NCBI GenBank assembly: GCA_964435715.1
Contig: CAYTAI010000005.1
Span: 10,190-52,418, forward strand
Origin: an uncultured Verrucomicrobiota bacterium
GTDB lineage: Bacteria; Verrucomicrobiota; Verrucomicrobiia; JAWXBN01
Direction: 5' to 3'
Length of the DNA: 42,229 nucleotides
The notes under the pieces are model-generated. The model did no database searches. It saw nothing but the letters and a program-made list of their open reading frames with translations, and had not been told where the DNA came from. A program made the translations under genes and the position numbers. This document shows positions 4,086 to 28,284 of this stretch, one piece after another (positions within the stretch are counted from its first letter, which is position 1; each line of letters starts with the position of its first letter).

Positions 4086-4201
4086 AATATTCTTTGAACT
4101 AATAGCAAAACCGCATGGGTTCAAGATTAAAAGTCGGGCAAAAAATACTTGTTTTTCCAAGCTTGATTGACTTTTGAAAAGATCAGGATTGAATTTGTCG
4201 C

Positions 4202-5488: not shown

Positions 5489-5542
5489 GATTTTTTCGGT
5501 CTGATACCATTCAGGGGAAAAGCAAATCCTGCAAGCGAAGGA

Positions 5543-6781: not shown

Positions 6782-6796
6782 CCTCCCCCCTTTTTC

Positions 6797-7654: not shown

Positions 7655-7695
7655 GTTTTCCGTGTTGAGTTTGACGGGATTTGAAGCAGTTTAAA

Positions 7696-8448: not shown

Positions 8449-8843
8449 TCCGCATTCACCGCCAATTCCCGCAGGTAAGAGAAAGTGTAGAGCCCTGTGT
8501 CATGCCCGTCCCCCCATACGGGCTGGAGGGCGTAACCCCCCACGAGATTGTATTTGACCAGGGACTTTCTCTTTTCCGGGTCGCCTTCTTTTGTCACAGC
8601 CTTGTAGAGATTCCCGAGCAAATCGCGTTCACCCAGACATGACGCACACGGACAGGCGGCGCGCAATTTGCCCAGATCGAAATATGACTCGAGGCCATCG
8701 TCCCAAGCGATGGCCAGTTCGTCCGCGATTTGCTGGATATTCAGGGGTTTCATGCCGCGGACATCATACCCAGAGTCCGGCATAATTGTCAAAAGGCTCT
8801 CGCGGGCTGGTATATCAAACTCATTTTTTGACTTGCTATACAT
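8445..8843 (-). CDS. DUF971-family protein (gamma-butyrobetaine hydroxylase-like N-terminal domain)
   Basis: 132 aa. LAIAWDDG...LRAACPCASC...LQPVWGDGHDTGLYTFSYLR matches DUF971 as I remember it. The start codon is uncertain. Confidence 0.55.
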   Translation of the reverse strand: MYSKSKNEFDIPARESLLTIMPDSGYDVRGMKPLNIQQIADELAIAWDDGLESYFDLGKLRAACPCASCLGERDLLGNLYKAVTKEGDPEKRKSLVKYNLVGGYALQPVWGDGHDTGLYTFSYLRELAVNAD

Positions 8844-8867
8844 GTATATCAGATATAACCTTTGAGG

Positions 8868-9074
8868 ATGTTAGCCATACGACTCGATGCAAAAACCGAA
8901 AAACGTCTTGATAATCTGGCTAAAAAAACAGGGCGGACCAAGACCTTTTATGCACGTGAGGCGATTCTTGAGCACATTGAGGATATGGAGGATGTCTATC
9001 TCGCGGCTGAACGCTTGAAGCATCCGGTCAAGACTTACTCAGCAGAGGACGTGAAACGTGAGCTGGGTCTATAG
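8868..9074 (+). CDS. Ribbon-helix-helix (CopG/RelB-like) antitoxin
   Basis: MLAIRLDAKTEKRLDNLAKKTGRTKTFYAREAILEHIED is a typical RHH N-terminus. It overlaps the downstream RelE/ParE-type toxin gene. Confidence 0.7.
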   Translation: MLAIRLDAKTEKRLDNLAKKTGRTKTFYAREAILEHIEDMEDVYLAAERLKHPVKTYSAEDVKRELGL

Positions 9075-9324
9075 ATTCGACGCGCGTGCCTTGAAAGAGC
9101 TCAAAAAGCTGGGACATAAAGCCCAGCGTGATATTATCGCCTATCTTGACGAACGAATCGCGGGCAGCTCTGATCCACGACGATTCGGAAAAGGGCTCAA
9201 GGCAGAGTTGGCCGGATTGTGGCGTTACCGTGTGGGTGATTACCGGTTGCTCTGTCAAATCAATGACCACGAGCTTTTGATATTGGTCGTCGCTGTCGGA
9301 CACCGGAAAATCGTTTACAGATAA
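9058..9324 (+). CDS. RelE/ParE-superfamily toxin
   Basis: 88 aa, GTG start. Pattern: FDARALKELKKL...LKAELAGLWRYRVGDYRLLCQINDHELLILVVAVGHRKIVY. The WRYRVGDYR and HR...Y motifs are characteristic of RelE/StbE. Confidence 0.8.
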   Translation: MSWVYRFDARALKELKKLGHKAQRDIIAYLDERIAGSSDPRRFGKGLKAELAGLWRYRVGDYRLLCQINDHELLILVVAVGHRKIVYR

Positions 9325-9460
9325 TGGTGCTTATAGCCGGCGGGTAAATCAGTTTATCTGCCCTCCCACCGACTGAATACGGTTCTCCATTTTCTCGAGC
9401 CAGACATACTCAAATTGTTGACAGGCTCTTCCGTTTTTTGCACCTGACCACTCTTAATGG

Positions 9461-9988
9461 TCAGAAATCCTGGCGGGAATGCTCCTGATGCTGGAGAGGA
9501 ATTTTGGTTTTATGAATGTCGAGGAGCGGCCCCAGCTCGTAAACATTGGTATAGCCATAATTATACAGCACGTTGTAGGTATGAATATTCAATGAAGTGG
9601 ATGGCTTTTTGGACGCAAAAGCCCGGGGCTCGTTTTCAAAGTTGTTATTGCAATAGATGAGCACCCGCGTGTCCTTGGAGGGAATAATTTGGGCGAGCTC
9701 GTCCGCGGTCATGTCCGGCAAGCTCAGATTGATGGCGCCTTTGACATGGAGCATATCGTATTTTTGCCGGCTCCGTGCATCCAGAATCACCGTCTCAGGG
9801 TCACGCGCCATTTTAATAAACTCTTTTTCCGAGACGCGTTTTTGCGCGCGGAGCGATTGGACTTTAGCCGCACTCTCGAGGAATCCGGCATAGTCGATTT
9901 TGGGATTGGGGATTTCCTGCGCGCCCGAAATGAATGGGTTCATTGAAACGCACAGAGCCGATATGAGGAGGAGTGTTTTTATTTTCAT
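9461..9988 (-). CDS. Exported single-domain rhodanese-like sulfurtransferase
   Basis: Start at ATG 9988 gives a signal peptide (MKIKTLLLISALCVSMNPFISGAQE). Rhodanese core: VILDARSRQKYDMLHVKGAINL, with the active-site loop IYCNNN. The ORF-track extension to 10828 is spurious. Confidence 0.75.
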   Translation of the reverse strand: MKIKTLLLISALCVSMNPFISGAQEIPNPKIDYAGFLESAAKVQSLRAQKRVSEKEFIKMARDPETVILDARSRQKYDMLHVKGAINLSLPDMTADELAQIIPSKDTRVLIYCNNNFENEPRAFASKKPSTSLNIHTYNVLYNYGYTNVYELGPLLDIHKTKIPLQHQEHSRQDF

Positions 9989-10114
9989 GAGGACAATCAT
10001 CCCCTGAATGCTCCGGCATTGTGTCAGGGTGTCGTAAAAAGCTTGTAAAAGAATTGTAATAAAGCGAAAAAAAATTCTCTTATAAAAGTCTCTTGTTTGG
10101 TCTAAGATGGAATC

Positions 10115-10747
10115 ATGAAAATGGATCACGCGGGCAAAGTCATTATTCCCCAGGGCGCAACCTACTGGCAGGAACGTTATGATTTGAAAGAAGACCAGTG
10201 GGACAAGGGCGAGGCATCTCCCGCGCTCGTGGACTTTCTCGCGCAGCTCGCTCCGGAGCTGAAAACAGGGCGGGTCATCCAGCCGGGTTGCGGCCGCGGA
10301 TATGATCTCGTGCAATTTGCGCGGGCGGGCTTTCAAGGTGTCGGCATTGACATTGCCCCGAGCGCGGTGCGGGACGCGGGCAAATTGCACGGGCAATTTG
10401 TGCAGGAAGGAAGGCTTCATTTTTACTGCGAGGATTTTTTCAGCACGGCACAAACCCGCTGGGCGGGACAGTGCGACTGGTATTTCGAACACACATTTTT
10501 CTGTGCGATTGAGCCCCGTCTGCGCGGTCAGTATGTGAGCAATTTGCTCGGCGTGCTCAAGCCGGGGGGATATTTTCTCGCGGTTTTCTATAACATCCAA
10601 CCCGAGGAAGGTCCCCCTTTTGGAACTTGCCGTGAAGAGCTTGAAGAAAGATTCCTGCCCCATTTTGAACTCCTCAAAGATTATATTCCCCGTTCCTGGC
10701 CGAACCGCACGGGGCTCGAAATCCTCTGGTGGATGCGCCGTAAATAA
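10115..10747 (+). CDS. SAM-dependent methyltransferase, thiopurine S-methyltransferase (TPMT)-like
   Basis: 210 aa. YWQERYDLKEDQWD is the TPMT-type W-rich N-terminus. The SAM motif I is VIQPGCGRGYD, followed by VGIDIAPSAV. Confidence 0.7.
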   Translation: MKMDHAGKVIIPQGATYWQERYDLKEDQWDKGEASPALVDFLAQLAPELKTGRVIQPGCGRGYDLVQFARAGFQGVGIDIAPSAVRDAGKLHGQFVQEGRLHFYCEDFFSTAQTRWAGQCDWYFEHTFFCAIEPRLRGQYVSNLLGVLKPGGYFLAVFYNIQPEEGPPFGTCREELEERFLPHFELLKDYIPRSWPNRTGLEILWWMRRK

Positions 10748-10854
10748 TTGATTCTGAGCAATTTGCTTTTCCAGACAAAGCCGCCCCAAAAAACATTGAA
10801 AAAAATTCAACGAATCCGATAGGGTCACTGTCTATATTATTGGTTAGGTTTAGT

Positions 10855-10921
10855 GGGTGTTGCACCGTTTTTTGGGATGCCCCAATCCCTTAGCTTCTTT
10901 GGTGCAACACCCATTTTTTTT
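10855..10921 (+). terminator. Rho-independent terminator-like hairpin downstream of the methyltransferase gene
   Basis: Perfect 12-bp inverted repeat: GGGTGTTGCACC (10855-10866) and GGTGCAACACCC (10901-10912). It is followed by a run of eight T (10914-10921). The 34-nt loop contains a small nested TGGGAT/ATCCCT(imperfect) element. Confidence 0.6.
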
Positions 10922-10971
10922 GCCCTCGCACTTTGGTCTCTCAGAAAGTTGAGTCAGCGTGTCTTTAAAAT

Positions 10972-11508
10972 TCAGAATGGATTTTTCATGTCCGGGGGGA
11001 GGTCAACGTCGAAGGCGGTGATGATCCGGGCGATCATGGTGTAGAATCCGGTCAGGACAACGATCTCAATGATTCCCTGCACGCCGATTTTGGCGGTTAA
11101 CTTTTTCTGGAGCGGGGCGGGAATGGATTTGCCCGCGAGGGCAAATTGCGCGGCGCGGAGCGCGGGGGTCAGCGGGGAGCGCGGCGGGAGCGATTTGCCC
11201 CGGCGAATGACCTCGATGAGGCTCTCGGGAACACCATTGTCCCGCGCATGCTGCACATGATGATCCCATTCATACGCCACCTGGAGCTTCTGCGAGGACA
11301 GCAGGATCACCGCCTCGCGGATGTCGCCGGGCAATTTGCTCTCAAAGCGCAGGAATGTTCCCAGCCGGCTGACGGATTCCGCCAAGTCCGGATGATTGAG
11401 CAACGTGCGATACATGCCGTCCACGCGGCCCCGCTTTTTCATCAGGGCGGCGAGGAGTTTGCGCGCTTTGGGATTCGCGGATTGTGTGGGGTCGGGCAGT
11501 TTTGCCAT
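10972..11508 (-). CDS. Carboxymuconolactone decarboxylase (AhpD-like) family protein
   Basis: Start taken at ATG 11508 (MAKLPDP...). MYRTLLNHPDLAESV...REAVILLSSQKLQVAYEWDHHVQHA fits the CMD/AhpD-like pattern. Confidence 0.65.
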   Translation of the reverse strand: MAKLPDPTQSANPKARKLLAALMKKRGRVDGMYRTLLNHPDLAESVSRLGTFLRFESKLPGDIREAVILLSSQKLQVAYEWDHHVQHARDNGVPESLIEVIRRGKSLPPRSPLTPALRAAQFALAGKSIPAPLQKKLTAKIGVQGIIEIVVLTGFYTMIARIITAFDVDLPPDMKNPF

Positions 11509-11536
11509 GACGGGAGGAGGTCGGTTGATTGTTTTT

Positions 11537-13255
11537 CTAATCGTGATCGGTCCATTCCTTTGCGGACTGGGCAAAGGGCGCGACGGGCGTTTTAAAATCG
11601 CGTCCGCAACGGATGTCCAGCAGCACCGGGCCATCATGGTCGCGCGCCTGCTCGAATGCCGTAATGAGAGAGCCGGGTTCCGTCACCGTGATGCCGTGAA
11701 GGCCCAGGGAACGCGCGAACCCCGCCCAGTCGTGGGTGGGATTCTCCGTCAGGCGCGTGGGGGTCGGCCCCATGGTTTTGGCGCGGAGATAGACATTGCC
11801 CAGCGCGCTGTTATTGATCAGCACAAAGATGACTTTCACGCCGAAGCGCGCGGCGGTTTGAATCTCGATGCCGTGCATGAGCATGCATCCGTCGCCCGTG
11901 ACGACCACATGGGGTTTGTCCGGCTGGGCGAGCTTGGCACCGATGGCGGCGGGAATCGCCCAGCCCATCGGCCCGAGATTGGTCGCGGAGATGTATTCAC
12001 GCGGGGCGTAGGACTCCCAGTAATGCCCTGCAAAAGCGCGGTGCGCGCCCGAGTCCACGAGCATGACGGTATTCCTCGGCATGACCTTGCGGAGATCGGC
12101 GATGACCCGCGCCGGATGAATCGGGTTCGCGTCGCTGGCCATATTCTCCGCGTCGTAAAGGCGCGGCCCCGAGGCGCGAATCCGTGCCATCCACGCCTCA
12201 CGATCCGCGGCTCCTGCGGCGAGGGCGGCGGCGGCAGAATCATCAGCGCCGACAAAGCGGAGGAATTCCCCACAGTCGCCCACGACGGGAAGCTCCGTGT
12301 GGTAAGTGCGCCCGATGCTCAAGGCGTCATTATCGACATGAATCAAAGCTTTGGACGGGCGGAATTTCCCGCTCCAAAAAAGCGTGTCACGCTGGTTCAG
12401 TCCGGAGCCCAGCACGATGAGGGTTTCCACCTCATCGGAAAGAATCGTCTCGATGGCGTGACGGGTTCCACTGTAACCAAATATTCCCAGAGCCAGGGGA
12501 TGATCCTCGGGAAAAACGCCTTTGGCGCGGAGGGTCGTCGCCACGGGAATCCGGAATCTCTCCGCGAAAGCCAGCAGGCCGCCGGAGGCTTCGGATTTCT
12601 CAATGCCCGCACCCGCCAGAATGACCACCTTGCGCGTTTGCCCGAGAACCGGCGCAAATTGCTTCGCCGCCTGAATGTCCAAGAGCCGCGGGGTCGCCAA
12701 TGAGGCGGGCAGTTTCCCATAGACGAAGTCCACATCGGCATTCTGAATATTTTTCGGCAGCACCAGATGAACCGGCTTGTGCGGGGTGGAGAGCATCCGG
12801 GTCATGAGCCGGTGGAGATCGAATTTCAGGAGGCGAATGTCATCGACGCAGAGTTCATCGGCTGTGACCGTGCGAAGAATGTCCACATCGTCGTAGGAGG
12901 CCGCACTGGAGTCTTGGAATCCGCCGCGCCCATCCCAGTCGGTGGGCACCTGCCCGCTCATCAGGAGCAGGGGAAATTCATCCGTCAGCGCGGTCGCCAG
13001 AGCGGTGACGGCATTTGTGATGCCCGGCCCGCCGATGCAGAAACACACGCCGAATTTTCCACTGCCACGGGCGTAACCATCCGCCATGTAAGCCGCCCCG
13101 GACTCATGCGCCGCGACAATCGGGGCAACCCCCGGCACCCGGTCGAATGCGGACAGGAATGGGTCGATCAACCCGCCCGGAACCATGAAAATGTGTGTGA
13201 TCCCCTCGGTTTTGACAGCTTGAACGATGTAATCGGTTGTTTTCATGAAATACAC
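11537..13255 (-). CDS. Thiamine-pyrophosphate-dependent enzyme (acetolactate synthase large-subunit-like)
   Basis: 572 aa. N-terminal TPP-pyrimidine domain: GITHIFMVPGG...HESGAAYMADGYAR. C-terminal TPP-binding motif: GDGCMLMHGIEIQTAARFGVKVIFVLINNSALG. Substrate not assignable. Confidence 0.85.
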   Translation of the reverse strand: MYFMKTTDYIVQAVKTEGITHIFMVPGGLIDPFLSAFDRVPGVAPIVAAHESGAAYMADGYARGSGKFGVCFCIGGPGITNAVTALATALTDEFPLLLMSGQVPTDWDGRGGFQDSSAASYDDVDILRTVTADELCVDDIRLLKFDLHRLMTRMLSTPHKPVHLVLPKNIQNADVDFVYGKLPASLATPRLLDIQAAKQFAPVLGQTRKVVILAGAGIEKSEASGGLLAFAERFRIPVATTLRAKGVFPEDHPLALGIFGYSGTRHAIETILSDEVETLIVLGSGLNQRDTLFWSGKFRPSKALIHVDNDALSIGRTYHTELPVVGDCGEFLRFVGADDSAAAALAAGAADREAWMARIRASGPRLYDAENMASDANPIHPARVIADLRKVMPRNTVMLVDSGAHRAFAGHYWESYAPREYISATNLGPMGWAIPAAIGAKLAQPDKPHVVVTGDGCMLMHGIEIQTAARFGVKVIFVLINNSALGNVYLRAKTMGPTPTRLTENPTHDWAGFARSLGLHGITVTEPGSLITAFEQARDHDGPVLLDIRCGRDFKTPVAPFAQSAKEWTDHD

Positions 13256-16759: not shown

Positions 16760-17353
16760 TTACTGGAAAACAACAATCAGTTCGGTGACCACAGGTTTAG
16801 CACCGAGCAGTTTTGCATCTGTGGAGAGTAAATCCCGTTCGCCGGAGAGTTCCGGATCATATTGCTCCACGGAGGGATAAAAGCGCACTCCGGCGACCCC
16901 ATTGAGTTTTCCCCCTTCAAAATTCGCCCACCCGCCGTAGTCCCAGTCGAATCCACTCAACTTGAATGGTGCCCCATTGGCTTGTCCCACCTCTTCTATA
17001 CTGGCTCCCAGTTTTAGACCGTTATCGAACTTCCATGCTTTACCGATAATGATGACGGTCGTGACCATTTTTTCACCCGTCTCCGGTTCCCACATGACCT
17101 GCAGTTCCTTGTCCGTGCCCTTGAAAATCCAAGCTCCGGGCGAAACACTGCCCTCCGGCCCGGGCAATTCCCCGTCGATGACATTTTCTTTTCCGTAAGC
17201 CGTTTGCAGGTTTTCGAGGGTCGCACCTTTTTCGATGGCTCCGACCCGCACCCCGGGGATCACGGTCAAATCATCGGCACTCACGGGGGTGGCGGCAGGG
17301 AGTGGCGCGATACGCAAAATCAAAAGCAGGATGACTGTGATCAATAATTTCAT
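16760..17353 (-). CDS. Hypothetical exported protein
   Basis: 197 aa with a clear signal peptide ([21 protein letters not shown]). I recognise no family. Confidence 0.5.
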
Positions 17354-17444
17354 TGCCCGGTTTCATAACATGGAGCCACCCAAAACTCAACAGAACAAAA
17401 TGATTTGCTGGCATGACACACAGAAACAATTTATAGATACCCCC

Positions 17445-17954
17445 ATGAAATCCTCAGCCTTGCCGAAGCTCCCCCGCAAACCGCTCGTCGGAATCATCAT
17501 GGGCAGCCAATCCGATTGGGACACCATGCAACACACCTCCGCCATTCTCAAAGAATTCAAGGTGCCGCATGTTGTGAATATTGTCAGTGCTCACCGCACC
17601 CCAAAACGCCTCTTTGAATATGCATCATCCGCCGAGTCCCGGGGACTGTCCGTGATTATTGCCGGAGCTGGCGGTGCCGCCCACTTGCCTGGCATGGCGG
17701 CGAGCCTGACCCCCTTGCCCGTGCTCGGGGTTCCTGTGGAGAGCAAAACGCTCAAAGGGCTGGACTCCCTCCTGTCCATCGCGCAAATGCCTGCCGGCGT
17801 GCCGGTCGGCACATTGGCAGTGGGGAAAGCCGGGGCGACGAATGCCGGGCTCCTCGCCGTCTCCATCCTCTCGGTCAAATACCCGTCCTTGAGCAAATTG
17901 CTCCGGGACTTTCGCACGGGACAGACCGCCTCGGTGAAGAAAAAGCCGTTTTGA
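17445..17954 (+). CDS. purE: N5-carboxyaminoimidazole ribonucleotide mutase
   Basis: Start at ATG 17445 gives 169 aa. [27 protein letters not shown] and PVLGVPV are canonical PurE motifs. Confidence 0.92.
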
Positions 17955-17992: not shown

Positions 17993-20248
17993 TCACCCTT
18001 GAGTGGCGCGGAGGTCGAGTGTGTAAGGTGCCTTTTTGTGGCTCTGGAAAGTCCGGGGTTGGACGGCTGTGCCTTGTTTTGCGGGGTGATGCACGATTCT
18101 TTCGAGCACACGGGCACGGGCTTCTTGCTGATTGCGGGGGAGCCCGTCATATTTTCCTGATTTGGGTTTCCAATTCAAATAATCAAAGGCGTGGGTGATT
18201 TTGCCGGATTGACGGTCGATAATCTCGAAAGAAAGCGGGGAATGTGCTTTGACTTGTGGCTGCAGGGAGTGGAGCAGATCAAAGAGGCGGTAACGAACGG
18301 CGCACACCGCCTCGTGATCGTCTTGTATGACCAGGGGAGCGCGGTATCCATTCACCGAGAGGGTGGGGAACTCAAATGGTTTGAGCGTCTTGATCAGGAT
18401 CTCGATCCGGTCGGTGGAGGCGTCCACCGTGCGTGCGACAGTGCCCGCGGCTGTGGGCTGCTCTCCCAGCACCGGCCAGGGTTCGACAGCCTGCCGCAAA
18501 ATGATTTCCGCATCGGCAGTCGTGATTTTTTCAATGACCGGATAACGGAAGTCGATGATTTCATCAAAAAGGGTTTCATCCACGTTGAACCCGTGTTCAT
18601 TCACAAAAGCAATGACTGCACGGAGATCACGCTTCAGGAAATAGGGCAGGGCAAACTCGTCATGGAGTCTGTGCTCAAAATCAATCAACGGGTGTGTATA
18701 TGGTTTTTGAAGAAAACAAGCCGCCAAGAGCCGTGGCAAGAGGTTTGCTGCCAGAAAAAGTTCACGCGATGGCAGCATCTCAAAAGCGCGGAACTCCACG
18801 AGCCCCAGCTGCCCATTGGGCATGAAAGGATTATAAAATTTATCAACGCTGATCTCCGCCCGGTGCGTGTTGCCATTCCAGTCCAGGAGCAAATTGCGCA
18901 GGATGCTGTCGAGTTTTTCGGGATCAGCGGGTGATGCCATTGATTCAATCGCCTTGAGCGAAATCTCCAGCTCGTAGATCAAGTCGTAAAAACTCTCGTC
19001 CACGCGGGGTCCCTGGCAGGACGGCCCGACAAAAAGCCCCGTAAAGACATAAGACAATGAGGGATGATTTTGAAAAAAGCGGATAAAAGAGGGCAAAAGC
19101 TTCGGCTGTTTGATAAAAGCATTTTCCTCGAGGGATGGCCCCCCGAGGATGATGTGGGAGCCGCCGCCTGTGGCGACTTTGCGCCCGCTAAATTGGTATT
19201 TGTATGATTGCAGACCGGCCTGCTCCGCGCAATGAAAGAGCAATTTGCTGAACCGGTCGAGCTCATCCCAGCTCCGTGCCGGCGGAATATTGATCTCGAG
19301 GACGCCGGGGTCGGGAATCACCGTGACCCGCTCGATCTCACCGGAGGATGGGGGGGGATATCCCTGAAAAATGAAAGGAGGACATTTGAGTGCTGTCGTG
19401 GCGGCATTGACTGCGGCGGTCAAGTCCAGGAATGCGGAGAGAGTTTTGACCGGGGGAAGGAAAATGCACAAGTCCCCGTCCCGGTTATACTCCACAACCA
19501 ATGCTGTCCGGACCGCTTCTTGGGGCAATTTGACCAGCGGCAAACGCAATCCTGCCGGACTGTCCCCTGGCACCATGACAATGCCCCCGCTGTAGTCAAA
19601 ATCCCATTTTTGCGAACGCCACTTTCCCGCTTCGAAGTCCAGCGGCAAGACCCAAGCGGCCGGTTCGCACATCGCATCCCATTTGAGTGCGGATGCGGAC
19701 TTTTCCAGCTCGGGGATGACAAAGGTTTTTTTGCTCCTGTCGAAAAAAGGAAGAGGCACTTTTTCGCCTTTCATTTTTAAGAAATACATTTGCCCCTCGA
19801 CATCTTCAAAAGCGGGTTGTGCCATTTTTTCATCGAGCCCGAGTGAACGGGCAATTTGCCGCGCCAGGGACTCTGGCAATGCAGGATCCGTTTTGGCGGT
19901 TACTCTCGATTCATCGAGTTTGAAGCGACCGAGGCCGCTCCATAAAGGTTGTCCGTTTTTGTAGTAATAAACGCCGAGACTCCAGCGGGGAAGGGGTTCG
20001 CCCGGATAATGTTTTCCGACGGTTTGCATGATGAGCGAGCCCGGAAAAGCCTTTTCTGCGAGGCTGCGGACCAGTGCCCGTCCGAACCGGATTTTTTCTG
20101 GACCCAGAGCGGCTGTATTCCACTCCGCCGCCTGATTGTCCTGGGGGACGAAGGTGGGTTCTCCCCCTTGGGTGAGGATGATTCCCGAGCGCTCAAAGAC
20201 CGCGTCGGCGGCCTGTCCTAAAGAATGAATGTGTTCTGATTTCGTCAT
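17993..20248 (-). CDS. DUF2126-family protein (C-terminal module of large transglutaminase-family proteins)
   Basis: 751 aa. LTQGGEPTFVPQDNQAAEWNTAALGPEK...GKHYPGEPLPRWSLGVYY matches the start of the DUF2126 region as I remember it. ATGA overlap with the upstream transglutaminase gene. Confidence 0.7.
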   Translation of the reverse strand: MTKSEHIHSLGQAADAVFERSGIILTQGGEPTFVPQDNQAAEWNTAALGPEKIRFGRALVRSLAEKAFPGSLIMQTVGKHYPGEPLPRWSLGVYYYKNGQPLWSGLGRFKLDESRVTAKTDPALPESLARQIARSLGLDEKMAQPAFEDVEGQMYFLKMKGEKVPLPFFDRSKKTFVIPELEKSASALKWDAMCEPAAWVLPLDFEAGKWRSQKWDFDYSGGIVMVPGDSPAGLRLPLVKLPQEAVRTALVVEYNRDGDLCIFLPPVKTLSAFLDLTAAVNAATTALKCPPFIFQGYPPPSSGEIERVTVIPDPGVLEINIPPARSWDELDRFSKLLFHCAEQAGLQSYKYQFSGRKVATGGGSHIILGGPSLEENAFIKQPKLLPSFIRFFQNHPSLSYVFTGLFVGPSCQGPRVDESFYDLIYELEISLKAIESMASPADPEKLDSILRNLLLDWNGNTHRAEISVDKFYNPFMPNGQLGLVEFRAFEMLPSRELFLAANLLPRLLAACFLQKPYTHPLIDFEHRLHDEFALPYFLKRDLRAVIAFVNEHGFNVDETLFDEIIDFRYPVIEKITTADAEIILRQAVEPWPVLGEQPTAAGTVARTVDASTDRIEILIKTLKPFEFPTLSVNGYRAPLVIQDDHEAVCAVRYRLFDLLHSLQPQVKAHSPLSFEIIDRQSGKITHAFDYLNWKPKSGKYDGLPRNQQEARARVLERIVHHPAKQGTAVQPRTFQSHKKAPYTLDLRATQG

Positions 20249-21120
20249 GAGATTTTTTTCACTTTCACATCGATTTCCATATTTGAAAAAAGATCCCGGG
20301 CTCCGCTGAAACTCCCGCTGATGGGCGGTGCTTGAAAAGGTTCCCTGGAGACGGCGACACGCACGTGATAATCATCCGCCAACCTCCCGCAAGTCGGGTC
20401 AAATCCTTTCCACCCCGCGCCCGGGAGATAAATCTCCGTCCATGCATGTGTCGCCCCGGCGGCAGCTTCCTGACTCGCCTCGTCATTGCCGCACAAATAG
20501 CCGCTGACAAAACGTGCCGCGCAACCCATGGACTTCGCCGCCTCCATCAGGAGCAGTGCAAAATCCCGGCAGGAACCGCTCCGCGCCCGCAAGGTTTCCG
20601 CCGGTGATTGGACTCCCGGAGTTTCCCGCCGGGAGTATGAAAAAAACAAGGGCACTGATTGATTGAGGGCGATAAAAAAATCCAGCGTGCCCGCGGTGCC
20701 ATGAATATCCAAAAATGGGGAAATCCATGCAGAGACAGAAGGGGCATCCCCGGGAAATGACCACAAAAGAAAGGGCGCGATGTCCCGCATTTCAATCTCC
20801 GAGTATTTCATTGGCAAACGCAGGGCGTGGGGCTCGAGGGCAAAATCCAAGGGGGTCGGATTGGATTGCCCGGCCTCGGCGGTGCTTTCGATGACCAATT
20901 CATCGGACGGTTCGGTAAACTCCACCAGGGCGACACAATTATTGAACACATCGTGCGCCCAGCGGATTTTGTGGGAGGGTGAGACACTGAGTCCGGAGGA
21001 GCGGATTTTCAAGTCGTGACCTTCCATCGGCCGGATCAAAGCACGGTGGACGCCGAAACGAACCGGTTCGCGGTAGGTATAACGTGTTTTGTGGTAAATG
21101 CTCAGAATCATAATATTCAA
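20245..21120 (-). CDS. Transglutaminase-family protein (Bact_transglu_N + transglutaminase core)
   Basis: 291 aa. N-terminal IYHKTRYTYREPV. Catalytic-Cys context GSCRDFALLLMEAAKSMGCAARFVSGY, then HAWTEIYLPGAGWKGFDPT. Confidence 0.85.
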   Translation of the reverse strand: MNIMILSIYHKTRYTYREPVRFGVHRALIRPMEGHDLKIRSSGLSVSPSHKIRWAHDVFNNCVALVEFTEPSDELVIESTAEAGQSNPTPLDFALEPHALRLPMKYSEIEMRDIAPFLLWSFPGDAPSVSAWISPFLDIHGTAGTLDFFIALNQSVPLFFSYSRRETPGVQSPAETLRARSGSCRDFALLLMEAAKSMGCAARFVSGYLCGNDEASQEAAAGATHAWTEIYLPGAGWKGFDPTCGRLADDYHVRVAVSREPFQAPPISGSFSGARDLFSNMEIDVKVKKIS

Positions 21121-22028
21121 CCCATGCGATCTTGCTCTGTTAATGGCGACTCTTCGCGGAGAACAGTCACGGTGACCTTGAGTTTTTGACTCGGGGAGCC
21201 TTTGAAAACGCCTTTCATGGGGGGGACATCACCATAATCCCGGCCGCTGCCGATGACGATATGTCTCTCTCCCTGGATCATATTATTCGTCGGGTCGATG
21301 CCCACCCAGTGTCCATTGGGCGCATAGACCTCCACCCAGGCATGACTGGCGGTGGCTCCGACGAGTGCGGGCTCTACCCGGTCAGAGACGGGACTGTCAT
21401 CATGTGTTTCCGTCTCGATGTAACCGCTGACATAACGGGCGGGGATACCCGCGTACCGCAAGACTGAGATCATAAAATGAGCAAAATCCTGGCAGACACC
21501 CTCTTTGCGGAGGAGGAAATCTTGAACCGTTGTCGTTGCATCGGTCGCTCCTGGCTTGTACTTGAATGTCTTGAAAATATATTCATTCAGGGATTTCACA
21601 GCCGGTCCGAATGCCTCAGTGGGATGAAAAAAACGTTTCGCCAATTCAGCGGTTTCAGGGGTGAACTGGATATAACGCGATGTCCCGAGGAAGTCGTGCA
21701 AGATCCTTTGGTTTTGGCGTTGCAGATGGCGTGATTCATTGACGGACAAGATCAATCCGCTGAGAGGATCGGCATAAGCGAGTGTCTCCACGTCGCAGGA
21801 TGATGAGACCACGAGATGATTGTGACGGAAGGGCACGGAAACGACCTCCACATAGTTCTCAAAATAATCGGTGTAACTGTCCACGGGCACAAACGGGGTG
21901 ATGTGCGTGGAAAAGCGGGAGACTTTTTGGTGACGCGAATCGCGCGGCCTCAACCGCATCTCGCTGAAAGATTCCGAGGCGGGCTGGGGGTAACTGTATT
22001 CGGTGGTATGTTCGATGTGGAAAAACAT
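21117..22028 (-). CDS. Transglutaminase-family protein (Bact_transglu_N + transglutaminase core)
   Basis: 303 aa. FHIEHTTEYSYPQP, then GVCQDFAHFMISVLRYAGIPARYVSGY, then HAWVEVYAPNGHWVGIDPTN. Confidence 0.85.
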   Translation of the reverse strand: MFFHIEHTTEYSYPQPASESFSEMRLRPRDSRHQKVSRFSTHITPFVPVDSYTDYFENYVEVVSVPFRHNHLVVSSSCDVETLAYADPLSGLILSVNESRHLQRQNQRILHDFLGTSRYIQFTPETAELAKRFFHPTEAFGPAVKSLNEYIFKTFKYKPGATDATTTVQDFLLRKEGVCQDFAHFMISVLRYAGIPARYVSGYIETETHDDSPVSDRVEPALVGATASHAWVEVYAPNGHWVGIDPTNNMIQGERHIVIGSGRDYGDVPPMKGVFKGSPSQKLKVTVTVLREESPLTEQDRMG

Positions 22029-22032
22029 TTTG

Positions 22033-24567
22033 CTAGTGGATGACGTTAAAGGCTTGGTGATGGAGATAATAATCCGAGATCACCACCGCGAGTTGTGTGG
22101 TGTCGGAGGATAACTCGTCGAGGAGCTTGGTCACGGACAGGGGTTTGGGGCTGTTGATGCCAGGAAAATACTCATCGAGCTCGGCAAAGCCCACGCGCGC
22201 TTTGAGTTTCTGGCAGACTTTCAGCGGGGTATTGATTTCATCATGGCGGTTTTTGCCGAAAACGCTTTTGAGCCCGTATTCAATCTGCTCAAGGCAGAAA
22301 AAGACCGATCGCGGCACATCCGCGTCCTGGAGCAAAAGACGGGCGGCGCGCTCGACAGTCGGCCGGGTCTGATACAAACTGCGGTAAGCGTAGAGACTCG
22401 AGAGCATCCGGAGAAGAGTCTCCACACCCGGATCCGGGCGGGTCGAGGATTCCTCACTGTTTTTTTTGCCCATGATCTGGCGCATGACCAGCAGCGTCGT
22501 CATGGAGCGCTCGATAAAAATGCCCATCTGGAGAAAATGCCAGGCATCATTGTGCAGCATGGTCTTGCCCGCGCAGCCTGTCATCGCATCAAATTGATTG
22601 AGGATGCGGTCCTGCAAATCCTGCACCCGGATCATGTCCAGCGAGGAGACCTGTCCGCCCCAGACCTGCGCTTCATCCATGTATTGATCGAGGTCTTGGA
22701 TGATCGACCACAGCTCGGGGGTCACGGCCTCGCGGGTGCTCAAGGCGTTGTTGCGGACGTACTGGATGCAATTGGCCACCGATGAGGCATTCGACTGATC
22801 CAACAGGATGTAGTGTGCCAGGATATTGCGCCGGATGAATTTCTGTTTTTTGAAAAAATTCGTCGAGTGTCCCGTGGCGGTGGCGACAGCTTCCCACAGG
22901 GGAGCCCACTCCTGGGGATTGCGCCGCGCCTGCTCATCGGATTGGATATCCAGAATCACGCGCAAAATGCGCGAGATATTCTCCGCTCTTTCGACGTAAC
23001 GCCCGATCCAGTAGAGATTTTCCGCGATGCGGCTGCCCAGGCGCATGCGGCGTTGAGGAATGGAAAATGAAACGGCAGGCTCTTCGGAGGCTTTTTCATT
23101 TCCCTTGAGCACCCATGTGTCCTTGATCCCGCCGCCCAGCCCGGTTGAAATCACATTCGACCCGTCTTCAATCGCGTACCGTGTCAGAGCGCAAACCGGT
23201 TGGCGGTCAGCCGGGCGTCCTCCAAAAGTGAATATTCTCAAACCACAATGACGTTCATCGAGGGACTCTCCCACCACGGAAGGCAATTTGCTGTTGGCGC
23301 AGCGGTTCTCCGCGACAAAATCCTGCGGGCGCGTCAAGACCATCTCTGTGACCCGGGCAATTTGCTCCGGGGTCAGCGTGGCGCAATCCCATTTATTGGG
23401 CAATGACTCGGACTCGACGGCGCGGAAAATAATGTATTGATCAATATCGGAGAGGATGGCTTCGCACCGGTCATGATCAGCGAGCCAGAAGCGTTTGACC
23501 GACGGAATCAAAAGGCTTTCGCCGAGGTAAAATTTCGCCATCTGCGGCAGAAAAGCCATGAGGGCGCGGTTGTCGCCCACGCCGGTGCCCGCAGCGTTGA
23601 CGATCGAGACAGTCCCTTTGCGGACACAAGTCATGAGCCCGGGCACACCGACAGTGCTGTCCTCGCGGAAGGACACCGGATCCAGGAGGCAGTCATCCAT
23701 GCGGCAATAAATGACATCGATGGGCTCGAGTCCGCTGATGGTTTTGAAGTAAACCCGGTCATTGAGCACGATCAAATCCCCTCCGCGCACCAGCGGCATG
23801 CCCATTTGACGCGCGAGAAAAGTGTTTTCATAATGGGACTCGTCGTAGACGCCCGCCGAGATCATCACCACACGGGGTTCACCGAGACTGCTGACGGCGA
23901 AAGAGCGCACATGCTCGAGGAGCTCGGTGGGAAAAGAATTCAGCGAGGCGATGTCCGCCAGATCCATCAGATCCGAGCAGGTCTGACGCAGGACATGCCG
24001 GGCTTGGATGGCGTAGCTCATGCCCGTGGGGTTTGAAACGGAATCTTCAATGACGACCCATTGACCCTGCGGGGTGCGGGCAAAGTCAATGCCTGCGATA
24101 TGGACATAAATATCCCGGGGGACTTGCACCCCCACAGCCGCCCGTTGATACCGGGGGTCATCATAAATGATCTGGAAAGGCACGATCCCGCTCCTCAAAA
24201 TCTCCTGGGCATCATAGATATCGCGGAAAAAGGCATTCCAAATATTGATGCGCTGTGTCGCCGCTTTCTGAAGGAATTGCCATTCATCCGCGGAGATGAC
24301 CCGTGGAAACGGATCAAAAGGAACGACATGATCGGGATCATTTTTTGCCGTGTAGAGAAGCGATGTCACCCCGAGCTCTTCCATGAGCTTTTGAGCTTGT
24401 CCGGAGACCCGGGCGGCATAACCGGCCTGGACTTGCAAGGCACCATAGGTCTGGTCATAGACCTGCCGGGTGGCACCTTCAGACAGGGTGATCTCGTCCA
24501 GCCCGGTGGTTTTGTGAATCCGGCCGGGGGTCGACTTGTTTTTGGGGAGTGTGATTTCTTGGGTCAT
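22033..24567 (-). CDS. Fusion protein: circularly permuted type-2 ATP-grasp domain + alpha-E domain
   Basis: 844 aa. The N-terminal half is paralogous to the 481-aa ATP-grasp ORF upstream (PRDIYVHIAGIDFARTPQGQWVVIEDSVSNPTGMSY versus [36 protein letters not shown]). The C-terminal half is paralogous to the alpha-E ORF (RIAENLYWIGRYVERAENISRIL versus RVAECLFWMSRYVERAEEIARIV). Confidence 0.85.
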   Translation of the reverse strand: MTQEITLPKNKSTPGRIHKTTGLDEITLSEGATRQVYDQTYGALQVQAGYAARVSGQAQKLMEELGVTSLLYTAKNDPDHVVPFDPFPRVISADEWQFLQKAATQRINIWNAFFRDIYDAQEILRSGIVPFQIIYDDPRYQRAAVGVQVPRDIYVHIAGIDFARTPQGQWVVIEDSVSNPTGMSYAIQARHVLRQTCSDLMDLADIASLNSFPTELLEHVRSFAVSSLGEPRVVMISAGVYDESHYENTFLARQMGMPLVRGGDLIVLNDRVYFKTISGLEPIDVIYCRMDDCLLDPVSFREDSTVGVPGLMTCVRKGTVSIVNAAGTGVGDNRALMAFLPQMAKFYLGESLLIPSVKRFWLADHDRCEAILSDIDQYIIFRAVESESLPNKWDCATLTPEQIARVTEMVLTRPQDFVAENRCANSKLPSVVGESLDERHCGLRIFTFGGRPADRQPVCALTRYAIEDGSNVISTGLGGGIKDTWVLKGNEKASEEPAVSFSIPQRRMRLGSRIAENLYWIGRYVERAENISRILRVILDIQSDEQARRNPQEWAPLWEAVATATGHSTNFFKKQKFIRRNILAHYILLDQSNASSVANCIQYVRNNALSTREAVTPELWSIIQDLDQYMDEAQVWGGQVSSLDMIRVQDLQDRILNQFDAMTGCAGKTMLHNDAWHFLQMGIFIERSMTTLLVMRQIMGKKNSEESSTRPDPGVETLLRMLSSLYAYRSLYQTRPTVERAARLLLQDADVPRSVFFCLEQIEYGLKSVFGKNRHDEINTPLKVCQKLKARVGFAELDEYFPGINSPKPLSVTKLLDELSSDTTQLAVVISDYYLHHQAFNVIH

Positions 24568-24631
24568 GGTAGAGAGACATTATCTTCACCGCAAAAAACC
24601 AGCCTGACAAGAGTCCTGTGCTGGAATCTTA

Positions 24632-25654
24632 TTATTGTTGCTGCTGCTCGATGGATTGCCGGGGGGGCATGATCCCCCGGGAATCCTGGACAAAACGCGG
24701 CTGGCTGTAGGTGATGTAACAGTCGTACATCCCCGCCCCGATCTCATTGAGTCCGGTTTGAATCAAATCCACAACACGGTGCAATCCCTGGCTGAAAAGG
24801 TCGTCCACCTCGCTGAAACTCAAATCAGCCATCATCCGCCCGCTGATTTTCTCGGGTTGATTGCGGAAACTCCACTCCCCCGCACCGGACAAACGCCGCA
24901 GCGCCCAGTCCACACGCCGGACACAATGCAGCACTGAACGCGGAAAACTATTGGACAAGAGCAGGAGCTCGGCGACCTTTTGAGGGACGACCTCGGCCTT
25001 GTAAAGGCGTTGGTAGGCTTGTGAAGCGCTGCGGTTCCGTAAAATGGCATTCCACTGCACGATCATCCGGCTGGAATCTTTTGCTTTGTGGGTGAGCAGG
25101 TGGAATTTATCATCGAGCACACGCGAGGTTTTGTCCGCCCGCTCGATATACCGCCCGATCTGGATGAACTCCCACCCGTCACTGTGATCGATTGTCGAGT
25201 CGGTCACCCCGCGGAAACCATTTGTAAATCTCACGATCTCACGGAAAAAGCCGTAAGGATTGCGTTCAAAAAGGTGGCGGGACTGTTTCGAGGTCAGCCA
25301 GAGGTAAAAACGATTCATCTCTTCCCACATTTCCTCGGAGATTTGCTCGCGAACCGTCCGGGTATTCTCACGGGCGGCAGCCACACAACTGACGATGGAA
25401 TTCGCATTATCCCGCGAGAAAACAAGATACTCGGTCACCCCTTCCTGGTCCGGGTCAAACCCCAATTTTTTGAACCCCGCTTTTTCCCCGAGACAATCAA
25501 TCAAGGGCATCCAGTTGTCGACAATCTCCCGGGATTGGGACAGGGGGATGTCCAGCATCAGCTGGGTATTGACCTCGACGATCCGGGCGATTTCCTCCGC
25601 CCGCTCGACATAGCGGCTCATCCAAAAAAGACATTCGGCGACGCGGCTGAGCAT
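24632..25654 (-). CDS. Alpha-E domain protein (DUF403/COG2307-like)
   Basis: 340 aa. LSRVAECLFWMSRYVERAE at the N-terminus and a second FIQIGRYIERADKTSRVL repeat are the hallmark of alpha-E proteins. There is a 1-nt spacer to the upstream ATP-grasp gene. Confidence 0.8.
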   Translation of the reverse strand: MLSRVAECLFWMSRYVERAEEIARIVEVNTQLMLDIPLSQSREIVDNWMPLIDCLGEKAGFKKLGFDPDQEGVTEYLVFSRDNANSIVSCVAAARENTRTVREQISEEMWEEMNRFYLWLTSKQSRHLFERNPYGFFREIVRFTNGFRGVTDSTIDHSDGWEFIQIGRYIERADKTSRVLDDKFHLLTHKAKDSSRMIVQWNAILRNRSASQAYQRLYKAEVVPQKVAELLLLSNSFPRSVLHCVRRVDWALRRLSGAGEWSFRNQPEKISGRMMADLSFSEVDDLFSQGLHRVVDLIQTGLNEIGAGMYDCYITYSQPRFVQDSRGIMPPRQSIEQQQQ

Positions 25655-25655
25655 A

Positions 25656-27101
25656 TTACCGGTCTCCTTCCAGCACCCATGTGTCTTTACTGCCGCCGCC
25701 CTGGGAGGAGTTCACCACCAGCGAGCCTTTTTTGAGTGCGACGCGCGTGAGCCCTCCGGGAATGATCGTGACCTTTTCCCCGTAAAGGATGTAGGGGCGC
25801 AAATCAATATGCCGTCCTTCAAATGAGCCGTCACAATAACAACCCAGCCGGGACAATGCGATGGTGGGTTGTGCGATGTAATTGCGCGGGCTCGCCTTGA
25901 TGAGTTTCCGGAATTTCTCGACTTCAGCCTTGGTGGCATGGGGTCCGACGAGCATCCCGTAGCCGCCGCTTTCATTGGCGGCTTTGACCACCAGCCGTGG
26001 CAAATTGTCCATGATGTATTTCATGTCTTTTTCTTCACTGGCGAGATAGGTTTCCACATTGGGCAGGATCGGGTCTTGACTCAGATAATATTTAATCATT
26101 TGCGGCACATAATAATAAATGACCTTGTCGTCGGCGATGCCGGTGCCGATGGAGTTCGCCAGGCTGACATTGCCCGCCCGGTAGGCGCCGACCAGTCCGG
26201 GCACACCGAGCATGGAGTCCTTGCGAAAGACTTTCGGGTCCAGAAAGTCGTCGTCCACGCGCCGGTAAATGACATCCACATGCTGCAGCCCCTTGGTCGT
26301 ACGCATGTAGACATGGTCGTCCTGGACAAAAAGATCACGGCCTTCCACTATCTCGATGCCCATTTGCCGCGCGAGAAAGGAGTGTTCGAAATAAGCGCTG
26401 TTGTATATCCCGGGGGTCAGCACAACGACATTCGGGTCGGGACGCTGGTGCGGTGAAATGTATTGGAGCAGCTTGAGCAATTCTTGCGGATAACTCTCCA
26501 CAGGCCGCACCGGGTAATGCTCGAAGAGGGCCGGAAAAATGTTTTTGAGCGTGTGCCGGTTCTCCAGCAGGTAGGAGACACCGCTGGGTGTGCGTCCGTT
26601 GTCTTCGAGGACAAGATATTGTCCGTCTTTGTCACGGATCAAATCTGTCCCGCAGATGTGGATGTAGATATTGCGGGGGACATTGAATCTCATGAATTCC
26701 GGACGGAAATGTTTCGCCTGCCGGATATGATACTCGGGGATGACCTTGTCTTTGATGATTTTTTGCCCGTGATATATGTCGTGCAGAAAAAGATTGAGTG
26801 CGGTGATGCGTTGAATCAGCCCTTTTTCAATTTTCTCCCACTCCTTATTCGGAATGATCCGCGGCATCAGGTCAAATGGAAAAATCCGCTCCGTCCCCTG
26901 CTTGTCGGAATACACGGTGAATGTCACCCCCTGATTGAGAAAAAAATTATCCGCGAGTTGCCGCCTCTGGTCGAATTCCTCCCGCGTCATGCGGTTGAAC
27001 CGGTTCACCAGCTTTTTGTAATGGGGACGGGGCTGCCCCTTGTGATCAAAAGCTTCATCAAAAAAACCTTCTGTCTGATATTTTTCAAACGCATTTTTCA
27101 T
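25656..27101 (-). CDS. Circularly permuted type-2 ATP-grasp protein (COG2308-like)
   Basis: Start at ATG 27101 (MKNAFEKYQ...) gives 481 aa, the usual size for this family. Motifs as listed for the fusion paralog, plus GGYGMLVGP and [27 protein letters not shown]. The ORF-track N-terminal extension to 27236 is probably not translated. Confidence 0.8.
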
Positions 27102-27278
27102 GGGCAAAAAAATTTCTCCGGATGAGCCTATGGCAAATCGGTCTCCCCGTGAAGAGCAAATCACATGCCACCTGGACGGTGATAATCGCCTTTGCCTCGG
27201 GCACAGCATCAGAGTCCGCAAACAAATGATGTGCATGTCATGCCCGATACGCTATAAAACACAAAAAAGAAAAACTTT

Positions 27279-27674
27279 ATGATCAACATCTTATTTGTCG
27301 GATTGGGCGGGGGAATCGGTTCGATCTGTCGTTATCTCCTCTCGGAATGGGCGAACCAACACTCGTGGGGCAAAAATTTCCCTATCGGCATTATATTGGT
27401 GAATTTGATTGGATGCCTCTTGATTGGCGGCGTTGCTGCGTTCCTTCAAAAAGATGTCATGATCGACCACTACATGACCCCTCATATCCGCGGACTATTT
27501 ATCATCGGTTTTTTGGGGGGATTCACCACTTTCTCCAGCTTCAGCCTGGATGCTCTGACTCTTTTTCAGAGGGGCGAACCCGGCAAAGCTTTTCTCTATG
27601 TGACCCTCAGTATTATGATCTCGCTCATGGCGGTGGTTGCCGGGTTTTACGCTGTGGAGAAATTCATCAAATAG
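27279..27674 (+). CDS. crcB: Fluoride channel CrcB/FluC
   Basis: 131 aa, four TM segments. VGLGGGIGSICRY and GFLGGFTTFSSF are canonical CrcB motifs. Confidence 0.9.
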   Translation: MINILFVGLGGGIGSICRYLLSEWANQHSWGKNFPIGIILVNLIGCLLIGGVAAFLQKDVMIDHYMTPHIRGLFIIGFLGGFTTFSSFSLDALTLFQRGEPGKAFLYVTLSIMISLMAVVAGFYAVEKFIK

Positions 27675-27747
27675 CTTTTGTCGCCCGTCCTCGATATTGA
27701 AAAAGTATTGGTGTCCTGCCGGATATTGGATTACTTTATTTTCTTCC

Positions 27748-28284
27748 ATGAGCGACACCCCTCCTTTCCAGACTGTGACGGTCGAAACCTTTTCCCCGCG
27801 CAATCTCCCCTCCCTGCAATTCCTCGATGTCCGCACACCAGCTGAATTTCGCTCCGTCCACGCGCAATTTGCTCGGCTGATTCCGCTCGACGAGCTTGAT
27901 GTCAATGCCCTCTACGAAAAAACAGGCTTTAAACAGGAGCAACCCCTCTACATCCTGTGCCAGTCGGGGCGACGGGCCGCGACAGCCGCCGAAAAACTCC
28001 ATGCCGCCGGGATCACAAATTGCATCGTTGTCGAGGGGGGGACAAATGCCTGGGTCGAAGCGGGACTCCCGGTGGAACGCGCCCCGGGCGGAGCGATCTC
28101 CATCGAGCGCCAGGTGCGGATCGCCGCTGGCACCTTGGTCGTCACGGGCATTTTGCTCGGGTGGTTTGTCAGTCCGTGGTTTTTCCTGCTCAGCGGTTTT
28201 GTCGGCGCAGGACTGGTCTTTGCCGGCGTGACCGACTGGTGCGGCATGGCTCTCCTTCTCGCGAAAATGCCGTGGAATAAATAA
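27748..28284 (+). CDS. Rhodanese domain fused to YgaP-like (DUF2892) membrane domain
   Basis: Start at ATG 27748 gives 178 aa. Rhodanese part: FLDVRTPAEF...YILCQSGRRA...GGTNAW. C-terminal part: two TM helices and ...GVTDWCGMALLLAKMPWN, typical of DUF2892. Confidence 0.75.
   Translation: MSDTPPFQTVTVETFSPRNLPSLQFLDVRTPAEFRSVHAQFARLIPLDELDVNALYEKTGFKQEQPLYILCQSGRRAATAAEKLHAAGITNCIVVEGGTNAWVEAGLPVERAPGGAISIERQVRIAAGTLVVTGILLGWFVSPWFFLLSGFVGAGLVFAGVTDWCGMALLLAKMPWNK

Follow-up and report, generated by a model that had tools for sequence, protein, structure and literature searches.

Why would a bacterium keep two versions of the same ATP-grasp/alpha-E gene set side by side? The question is raised by a 42-kb stretch of DNA from an uncultured Verrucomicrobiota bacterium (contig CAYTAI010000005.1; hereafter the window, with coordinates given as window positions). 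Within it, six minus-strand open reading frames (ORFs) run in one direction over 17993-27101 (~9 kb) and encode a standalone circularly permuted (CP) ATP-grasp protein, a standalone alpha-E protein, a fusion of these two domains, two transglutaminase-like proteins and a DUF2126 protein. An earlier reading made from the letters alone (the sequence-only reading) had taken the tandem of split and fused versions to suggest either two ligation steps in sequence or a duplicated system with two substrates. The analysis presented here favours, with moderate confidence, a different answer. The six genes, numbered g1 to g6 in transcription order, would form a self-contained cytoplasmic operon encoding a complete system, with g1 and g2 active, g3 non-catalytic, g6 serving as a second ligase, and g4 and g5 acting as amidases. 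Such a system probably makes and cuts amide bonds.

25656-27101, minus strand: g1, standalone CP ATP-grasp, 481 amino acids (aa), Pfam PF14403 (CP_ATPgrasp_2/_1), 1.8e-164
24632-25654, minus strand: g2, alpha-E, 340 aa, Pfam PF04168, 5e-89
22033-24567, minus strand: g3, ATP-grasp::alpha-E fusion, 844 aa
23098-24513, minus strand: g3 N-terminal half (about aa 19-490), degenerate ATP-grasp domain, PF14403, 2.8e-113
22063-23034, minus strand: g3 C-terminal half (about aa 512-835), alpha-E domain, PF04168, 1.7e-68
21117-22028, minus strand: g4, transglutaminase-like, 303 aa, Bact_transglu_N + Transglut_core
20245-21120, minus strand: g5, transglutaminase-like, 291 aa, Bact_transglu_N + Transglut_core
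17993-20248, minus strand: g6, DUF2126, 751 aa, Pfam PF09899, 1.3e-207

Much of the sequence-only reading was borne out. The six co-directional genes and their lengths were all recovered on the minus strand, as were their spacers (1 nt for g1-g2, 64 nt for g2-g3, 4 nt for g3-g4) and the 4-nt overlaps of g4/g5 and g5/g6. Its domain assignments were correct (Pfam E-values from 1.3e-207 to 1.7e-68 for ATP-grasp, alpha-E and DUF2126), and Pfam is unambiguous for all six proteins; a search of the six against NCBIfam returned no model for any. It was also right that the split and fused versions are paralogous and that the genes are arranged as one unit; they are tightly spaced and bordered by genes on the opposite strand. 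The linkage recurs in relatives, and the description of the ATP-grasp/alpha-E/transglutaminase system as uncharacterised still holds. In what follows, A stands for the standalone CP ATP-grasp, E for alpha-E, AE for the ATP-grasp::alpha-E fusion, T for transglutaminase (TG), D for DUF2126, DT for a TG::DUF2126 fusion and T/D for the same two as split genes.

The two ATP-grasp copies and alpha-E

The first line of evidence comes from the ancestry of the two ATP-grasp domains. A maximum-likelihood tree of 35 standalone and 48 fused domains from many phyla placed the two classes on opposite sides of one branch (Shimodaira-Hasegawa-like approximate likelihood ratio test, SH-aLRT, 99), with g3 in the fused clade and g1 in the standalone clade, where its nearest neighbour is an Opitutaceae standalone copy and not g3. 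Because the classes separate on one deep branch across phyla, the duplication that gave rise to g1 and g3 is ancient.

The second line of evidence lies in the motifs. ATP-grasp enzymes carry a phosphate-binding Lys plus a Gly-rich loop, together with a D...E-x-N-x-x-PG metal-binding motif. Across the 35 standalone domains, E166, N168, R170, D324, K326, K373, G379-G382 and D433 are 100% conserved, a set that has been lost in the 48 fused domains. The corresponding standalone-invariant motifs are LEDNxR (166-170), ADDK (324-326), VVK-x5-SGGYG (K373, G379-382), HxDLRP (D433) and NSSQGGG (464-470). By analogy, K-x5-SGGYG would be the phosphate-binding Lys and Gly-rich loop, and GTD...LEDN-x-x-PSG the metal-binding motif, a mapping that we infer because no liganded homologue could be aligned. 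In g1, all the positions found invariant across 41 standalone homologues are intact, among them E166/N168/R170, D324-K326, K373, G379-G382 and D433. Relative to g1, g3 carries N168S (S176), R170S (S178), K373F (F381) and D433G (G442), with GGYG replaced by SLPN (388-391) and DDK by DNR (N333/R334), so that it is without the Lys and Gly-rich phosphate-binding loop and without the Asn of the D...E-x-N metal ligands, and still has D161 and E174. With the Lys/Gly-rich loop and ExN motif, invariant in standalone copies, gone from the fused class, the ATP-grasp half of g3 is probably a pseudo-ligase, predicted not to bind or use ATP. This agrees with the Pfam text for PF04174, by which inactive versions are often fused to alpha-E. 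The standalone protein g1, for its part, is a predicted active ligase, and a Yersinia orthologue of it releases phosphate from ATP (PMC6376114).

These results bear directly on two other accounts of the tandem arrangement. One would derive it from a recent local duplication followed by fusion, as the side-by-side position of paralogous genes might suggest. This candidate was rejected by the tree, in which the fused and standalone forms part on a single deep branch across phyla, and the sequence-only reading's question of recent duplication versus ancient subtypes is settled for the latter. Pairwise scores agree: g1 is 68% identical to an Opitutaceae homologue and matches the solved structure 3N6X over its full length (E 5.5e-172, 576 bits), as against 35% identity and 299 bits with the ATP-grasp half of g3. 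We regard a recent origin as extremely improbable. The other account would have both ATP-grasp copies active, in two sequential ligations or in a duplicated system on two substrates. In its favour, both copies exceed the Pfam cut-off by a wide margin, many conserved residues of the pocket persist in g3 (D161, E174, the R435-equivalent and the KDTW motif), and the tandem A-E-AE order recurs in several lineages. However, g3 and 48 other fused copies are without the Lys and Gly-rich loop, the ExN Asn, R170, D433 and DDK, all invariant in the 35-41 standalone proteins, and the paralogues are ancient and only 35% identical. The sequence-only reading's central proposal is at odds with a fused copy that belongs to an old clade and has lost its catalytic motifs, and two active ATP-grasp ligases seem improbable to us.

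Two ER motifs are present in the alpha-E protein g2 (RYVERAE 14-20, YIERAD 169-174) and are kept in the alpha-E half of g3 (RYVERAE 523-529, FIERS 684-688), but the fused class does not conserve R95, E96, R99, R178 and W201, which never vary in standalone alpha-E. An AlphaFold2 model of g2 (mean predicted local distance difference test, pLDDT, 90.2) is all-helical, with 17 helices. A Foldseek search of this model against the PDB found no similar solved fold (best E 0.49, template modelling (TM) score at most 0.27), and sequence and profile searches of the PDB with alpha-E gave nothing real. The protein is predicted to be the partner subunit of g1.

Transglutaminases, DUF2126 and gene linkage

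Both transglutaminase-like proteins retain a triad, Cys179-His229-Asp245 in g4 and Cys184-His225-Asp241 in g5, in columns that are 100% conserved among 133 homologues. They fall into separate orthogroups: TG domains fused to DUF2126 are g5-like without exception (72/72), the standalone transglutaminases adjoining AE genes are g4-like (52/52), and each of the nine standalone g5-like genes (9/9) lies directly upstream of a standalone DUF2126 gene. Judged by this orthogroup pattern, g5 and g6 are a fission of the usual ~1100-aa TG::DUF2126 protein (Rv2566 type; PMC2588565), and g4 is, by its sequence, the orthologue of the standalone transglutaminase of DT-AE-T clusters. The same T/D split occurs in genomes G001, G002, G011, G115 and G156 and in Opitutaceae; in the tree of split versus fused DUF2126 proteins, some of the rows labelled split are contig-truncated. 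Both Bact_transglu_N genes of the window belong to DUF2126-module orthogroups, and the transglutaminase specific to the A-E module is not in the operon. The fission, this absence and the sigma-54 promoter-like site described below had all been missed by the sequence-only reading.

DUF2126 itself appears to supply the second ligase. The g6 protein keeps 125 of the 136 columns that are at least 95% conserved among 85 homologues. Sequence and profile searches of the PDB with DUF2126 found nothing. When the AlphaFold2 model of g6 (pLDDT 89.5) was compared with the PDB by Foldseek, 43 of the 43 best matches were glutamine-synthetase-superfamily enzymes, including the gamma-glutamylmethylamide synthetase GmaS 9qur (prob 0.99), glutamine synthetases and YbdK 1r8g (0.97). 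On the strength of this model, g6 is a predicted glutamine-synthetase-like carboxylate-amine ligase, and the second ligase of the operon is more likely to be g6 than the fused ATP-grasp. The comparison speaks for catalysis by just two of the three apparent ligase domains. The two ligation steps of the sequence-only reading remain plausible, but the second would be performed by DUF2126, with its glutamine-synthetase-like fold, and not by the fused ATP-grasp.

Two surveys addressed how firmly the A-E and DUF2126 modules belong together. The first took 46 DUF2126 loci, drawn from many phyla and each flanked by 8 kb or more on either side, which were arranged as DT-AE(-T) in 23, A/E + DT in 9, A/E + DT + AE in 6, A/E + T/D in 3 and DT alone in 5; the A/E module adjoins the DUF2126 module in 18 of these 46 fully flanked loci. 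The second drew on an even sample of 201 genomes from the window's phylum (related genomes not being independent), where DUF2126 occurred in 28 and CP ATP-grasp in 50. A standalone A was present in 28/28 of the DUF2126 genomes and an AE in 27/28, with A adjoining AE or D in 12/28; about 15 of the 201 had A-E alone, without DUF2126. Where DUF2126 clusters in other phyla had no A/E nearby, a standalone A was found elsewhere in 24 of 25 genomes. Taken together, these counts mean that DUF2126 implies a standalone ATP-grasp (52/53 genomes overall), a strong pattern among genomes of which related ones are not independent. DUF2126 has more than 596 matches across many phyla. From this near-constant co-occurrence and frequent adjacency it follows that the operon brings together two portions of a single system already known from comparative prediction; and because a DUF2126 module is practically never found in a genome that has no standalone ATP-grasp, experiments on DT-AE-T alone may miss a required partner.

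The window's genome (2.79 Mb, 92 contigs, 92% complete) has all its parts of the system in one place. The genome's totals are two CP-ATP-grasp, two alpha-E, two Bact_transglu_N and one DUF2126 loci, all in the operon, and no further locus of these four kinds was found in the 92%-complete genome; the operon is therefore the organism's whole CP-ATP-grasp/alpha-E/transglutaminase/DUF2126 system.

The component set is common, but among the loci examined the order A-E-AE-T-T/D was seen only in the window's own genus, where G001 has the identical six genes. In the same-class genome G115 (L099, C142:132000-147000; 2919-13213, minus strand), seven co-directional genes with a split DUF2126 follow this order except for a third transglutaminase (293 aa) between alpha-E and AE, at the position of the window's spacer, and the window looks like this arrangement minus that gene. 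The A-E pair is divergent from AE-T-T-D in G156 and G159, and is unlinked from the rest in G011 and probably also in G002. The latter, from the same family (L017 4189-5673, minus strand), has an opposite-strand M17 leucyl aminopeptidase gene between AE and the first transglutaminase. Two same-class relatives, G026 and G006, have the order A-(ACT)-E-PFK-...-DT-AE-T, with a phosphofructokinase (PFK) gene between alpha-E and TG::DUF2126. G006 has a gene for a protein with two ACT domains placed between ATP-grasp and alpha-E, and G026 also has, at this position, a 1124-aa ORF without a Pfam match; the phosphofructokinase/ACT-type insertions map to L013 16319-17710 (minus) and L014 13298-14692 and 15673-16548 (both minus). 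The 2.4-Mb same-class genome G018 (L102, C31:21000-33000; 2449-8232, plus strand) has an ATP-grasp gene, a divergent alpha-E gene, AE and a transglutaminase. DUF2126 is absent genome-wide in G018, and likewise in G008, G028, G150 and G057, which are exceptions to the pairing of AE with DUF2126. Two DUF2126 systems occur in the complete genome G171 (L103, C1:68000-80000), one of them a fused DT-AE cluster and the other a cluster with a split-type DUF2126, where the AE frame is unusually long at 1155 aa and has ~300 extra N-terminal residues.

Candidate promoter, operon borders and proposed pathway

27155-27170, minus strand: sigma-54 promoter-like element, 54 nt 5' of the g1 ATG
24568-24631, minus strand: g2-g3 spacer of 64 nt, weak hairpin followed by a T run

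Another feature of the operon is a candidate promoter of the -24/-12 type. Across the whole window, TGGCAY-N5-TTGCW is matched exactly by the element TGGCATGTGATTTGCT and nowhere else (0.15 matches expected), and the element has one mismatch to the strict consensus TGGCAC-N5-TTGCW. The same-genus genome G001 has the upstream box TGGCACGTGATTTGCT, a conserved island in an otherwise divergent upstream region, and rpoN was found in the window's genome (8e-59). When the search was extended across loci (at most two mismatches, GG/GC fixed, within 250 nt upstream), sigma-54-like sites were found 5' of 22 of the 44 standalone ATP-grasp genes across phyla, 14 of them with at most one mismatch. Shuffled sequences gave means of 0.77 regions (at most two mismatches) and 0.07 (at most one), the reverse strand gave 1/44, and other ORFs of the same loci 2.4%. 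DT genes, too, had such a site in 15 of 69 cases. These sites fit published work on induction under nitrogen limitation. Anbu is induced under nitrogen limitation (PMC5666114, PMC6376114), and in P. putida, PP_2685 and PP_2688 (of the group PP_2685-PP_2688, one member of which is a CP ATP-grasp gene) were up 16- to 22-fold on nitrate versus ammonium (PMC8050072). A Bradyrhizobium CP_ATPgrasp_1 gene also has a predicted RpoN site (PMC13207237).

The promoter-like element also helps to place the start of the operon. The longest g1 frame is 526 aa, but the 481-aa start is preferred, because the stop-to-stop frame of the G001 orthologue is only 482 aa and because the element falls inside the 526-aa extension. 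An alternative start likewise exists for g5, at an ATG at 21111 (288 aa, leaving a 5-nt gap) versus the TTG at 21120. On the 3' side the operon is bordered by the convergent, opposite-strand purE gene (17235-17954, plus), with a gap of 38 nt; on the 5' side lie the divergent crcB and rhodanese/YgaP genes (27279-28284, plus). The crcB gene (fluoride channel) and the overlapping rhodanese/YgaP membrane protein gene share a 177-bp control region with the operon. The possibility of an attenuator in the g2-g3 spacer was examined and rejected, as its hairpin (-18 kcal/mol, z -1.68) and T run were not significant and were poorly conserved in the same-genus genome. Elsewhere in the window are an M42-family aminopeptidase gene (38839-39945, plus) and a class I/II aminotransferase gene (5543-6781, plus).

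If these pieces are combined, a pathway can be proposed. One sigma-54 promoter, probably activated under nitrogen limitation, would drive all six genes. With its partner g2, g1 would catalyze ATP-dependent amide ligation via an acyl-phosphate, on a substrate that could be a small molecule or a protein side chain, and g6 would perform a second ATP-dependent ligation of the glutamine-synthetase type, probably gamma-glutamyl-like. The non-catalytic paralogue of g1 and g2, g3, would probably serve the g4/g5/g6 module, either as its scaffold or by binding substrate. As cysteine amidases or transamidases, g4 and g5 would then act on the amide or isopeptide bonds so formed, by hydrolysis or transfer; glutathionylspermidine synthetase/amidase offers a parallel, its amidase half undoing the work of its synthetase half. 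The net effect would be that, when nitrogen is limiting, such bonds are made and reversed in the cytoplasm.

Several observations weigh against this reading. PDB sequence and profile searches with the ATP-grasp domain retrieved only 3N6X and no remote link to a liganded ATP-grasp, so the roles of the residues lost from g3 are assigned by analogy with canonical motifs; g3, moreover, keeps E174 and D161, and residual nucleotide binding is conceivable. In g6, 11 highly conserved columns deviate (D98N, E281N, R480Q, R714V and others), and its Foldseek matches, taken absolutely, are weak (E about 1e-3, TM no higher than 0.36), low TM scores being expected because the protein is permuted and much larger. 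The single transcript and the nitrogen control of the operon are things that we infer, and a generic scan for sigma-70 promoters and terminators did no better than shuffles. Work with the proteins of Anbu operons, finally, found no stable complexes and no peptidase activity (PMC6376114, PMC5666114).

What the ligases and amidases act upon divides the remaining alternatives. Protein tagging in the manner of Pup or ubiquitin, in which the ligases attach amino-acid or peptide tags and transglutaminase-like enzymes remove them, goes back to Iyer 2009 and to Zhang and Aravind 2012 (PMC3495828, PMC5666114). It has that published comparative-genomic prediction behind it, as well as the combination of ligases with papain-fold peptidases and the presence of the proteasome-like Anbu in related operons. 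In the window's organism, however, no match to a proteasome or Anbu homologue (PF00227) was found in the 92%-complete genome, and no tag-peptide gene is encoded in the operon, whose spacers of 1, 64 and 4 nt are too short for one. Having no room for a tag gene and no Anbu weakens the idea of tagging proteins for degradation in this organism. Nor did Iyer et al. 2008 find Pup-like ORFs in the neighbourhood of Rv2566-type genes (PMC2588565), and modified substrates have never been reported in the literature; tagging is, in our view, rather unlikely. Somewhat better placed, and still only a possible alternative, is small-molecule nitrogen metabolism, where gamma-glutamyl-type amides of amines or amino acids would be made and hydrolysed for nitrogen scavenging or storage. 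Analogues exist in PuuA/PuuD, GmaS and glutathionylspermidine synthetase/amidase. The conservation of sigma-54 promoter-like sites across phyla and the nitrogen-limitation induction in Pseudomonas (PMC8050072) would suit this account, as would gamma-glutamylmethylamide synthetase as the best structural match of g6, the deposition of the solved g1 homologue as a putative glutathionylspermidine synthase, the correlation of the domain abundances with urea-metabolism domains in marine metagenomes (PMC3597751), and the ACT-domain and phosphofructokinase genes embedded in relatives' clusters. On the other hand, the account is built on analogy, the operon has no transporter or downstream catabolic genes, and the need for alpha-E and a pseudo-ligase is left unexplained. 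Lysates with Rv2411c and Rv2567 made no gamma-aminobutyric acid (GABA)-trehalose (bioRxiv 10.64898/2026.04.15.718621), a result that concerns one product only.

A bolder form of the six-gene amide-ligation reading can be put forward tentatively. The DUF2126/fused-pseudo-ATP-grasp/transglutaminase set would then have no independent existence as a system and would be an obligate accessory of the A/E core, AE would be a dead-enzyme scaffold derived from that core, and the six proteins would run one sigma-54-controlled, nitrogen-starvation cycle that builds and trims gamma-glutamyl amides. If true, the operon would hold the full minimal set of genes, and transferring it to a host in one step could reveal the product. 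Few bacterial gene clusters without known chemistry are as widespread as this system, and a 9-kb operon with all parts under one predicted promoter makes a convenient unit for reconstitution.

Relation to known systems

The components of this system and their association were already predicted in 2008-2009 (PMC2588565; Iyer et al. 2009, as cited in PMC5666114, PMC6376114 and PMC3495828). What may go beyond the usual statements is family-wide: the motif loss in fused ATP-grasp domains, the dependence of DUF2126 on a standalone ATP-grasp, and alpha-E as a protein without a similar solved structure.

By way of function, the nearest analogies are glutathionylspermidine synthetase/amidase (GspS) and PafA/Dop, each of which couples ATP-dependent amide ligation with a second enzyme that undoes the bond. 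PafA/Dop uses a glutamine-synthetase-like ligase for this, GspS an ATP-grasp ligase. Neither shows detectable orthology to the operon, which has no Pup-like gene, and membership is not claimed. A more direct link is 3N6X (Mfla_0391), the full-length match of g1; it is a structural-genomics entry, and its deposited name, "putative glutathionylspermidine synthase", is a prediction.

Orthology is found with two kinds of gene cluster. In the Rv2566/Rv2567/Rv2569c cluster (PMC2588565), the three proteins are orthologous to g3, g4 and g5+g6, and this Rv2566-type DT-AE-T arrangement is the commonest among the 46 fully flanked loci (23). Unlike it, the window has TG::DUF2126 split into two overlapping genes, the order AE-T-T/D in place of DT-AE-T, and a standalone A/E pair joined in one operon. 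The Anbu-type operon consists of CP ATP-grasp (COG2308), alpha-E (COG2307), a transglutaminase-like protein (COG1305) and Anbu (Valas and Bourne 2008; Iyer et al. 2009; PMC5666114, PMC6376114). Its first two genes are orthologous to g1 and g2, and the sigma-54/nitrogen-limitation signature is held in common, whereas the window's genome is without Anbu, a frequent but optional member, and without the module-specific third transglutaminase. The same component set as in the window occurs in composite A-E + DT-AE-T clusters of Halieaceae, Deltaproteobacteria, Spirochaetota, Verrucomicrobiota and others (L031, L038, L043, L046, L073, L079, L084, L088; G092, G123, G155, G115), in differing gene orders, that of G115 matching the window's but for its one extra transglutaminase. 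Set beside these relatives, the window's copy is an ordinary, compact one that adds no new component.

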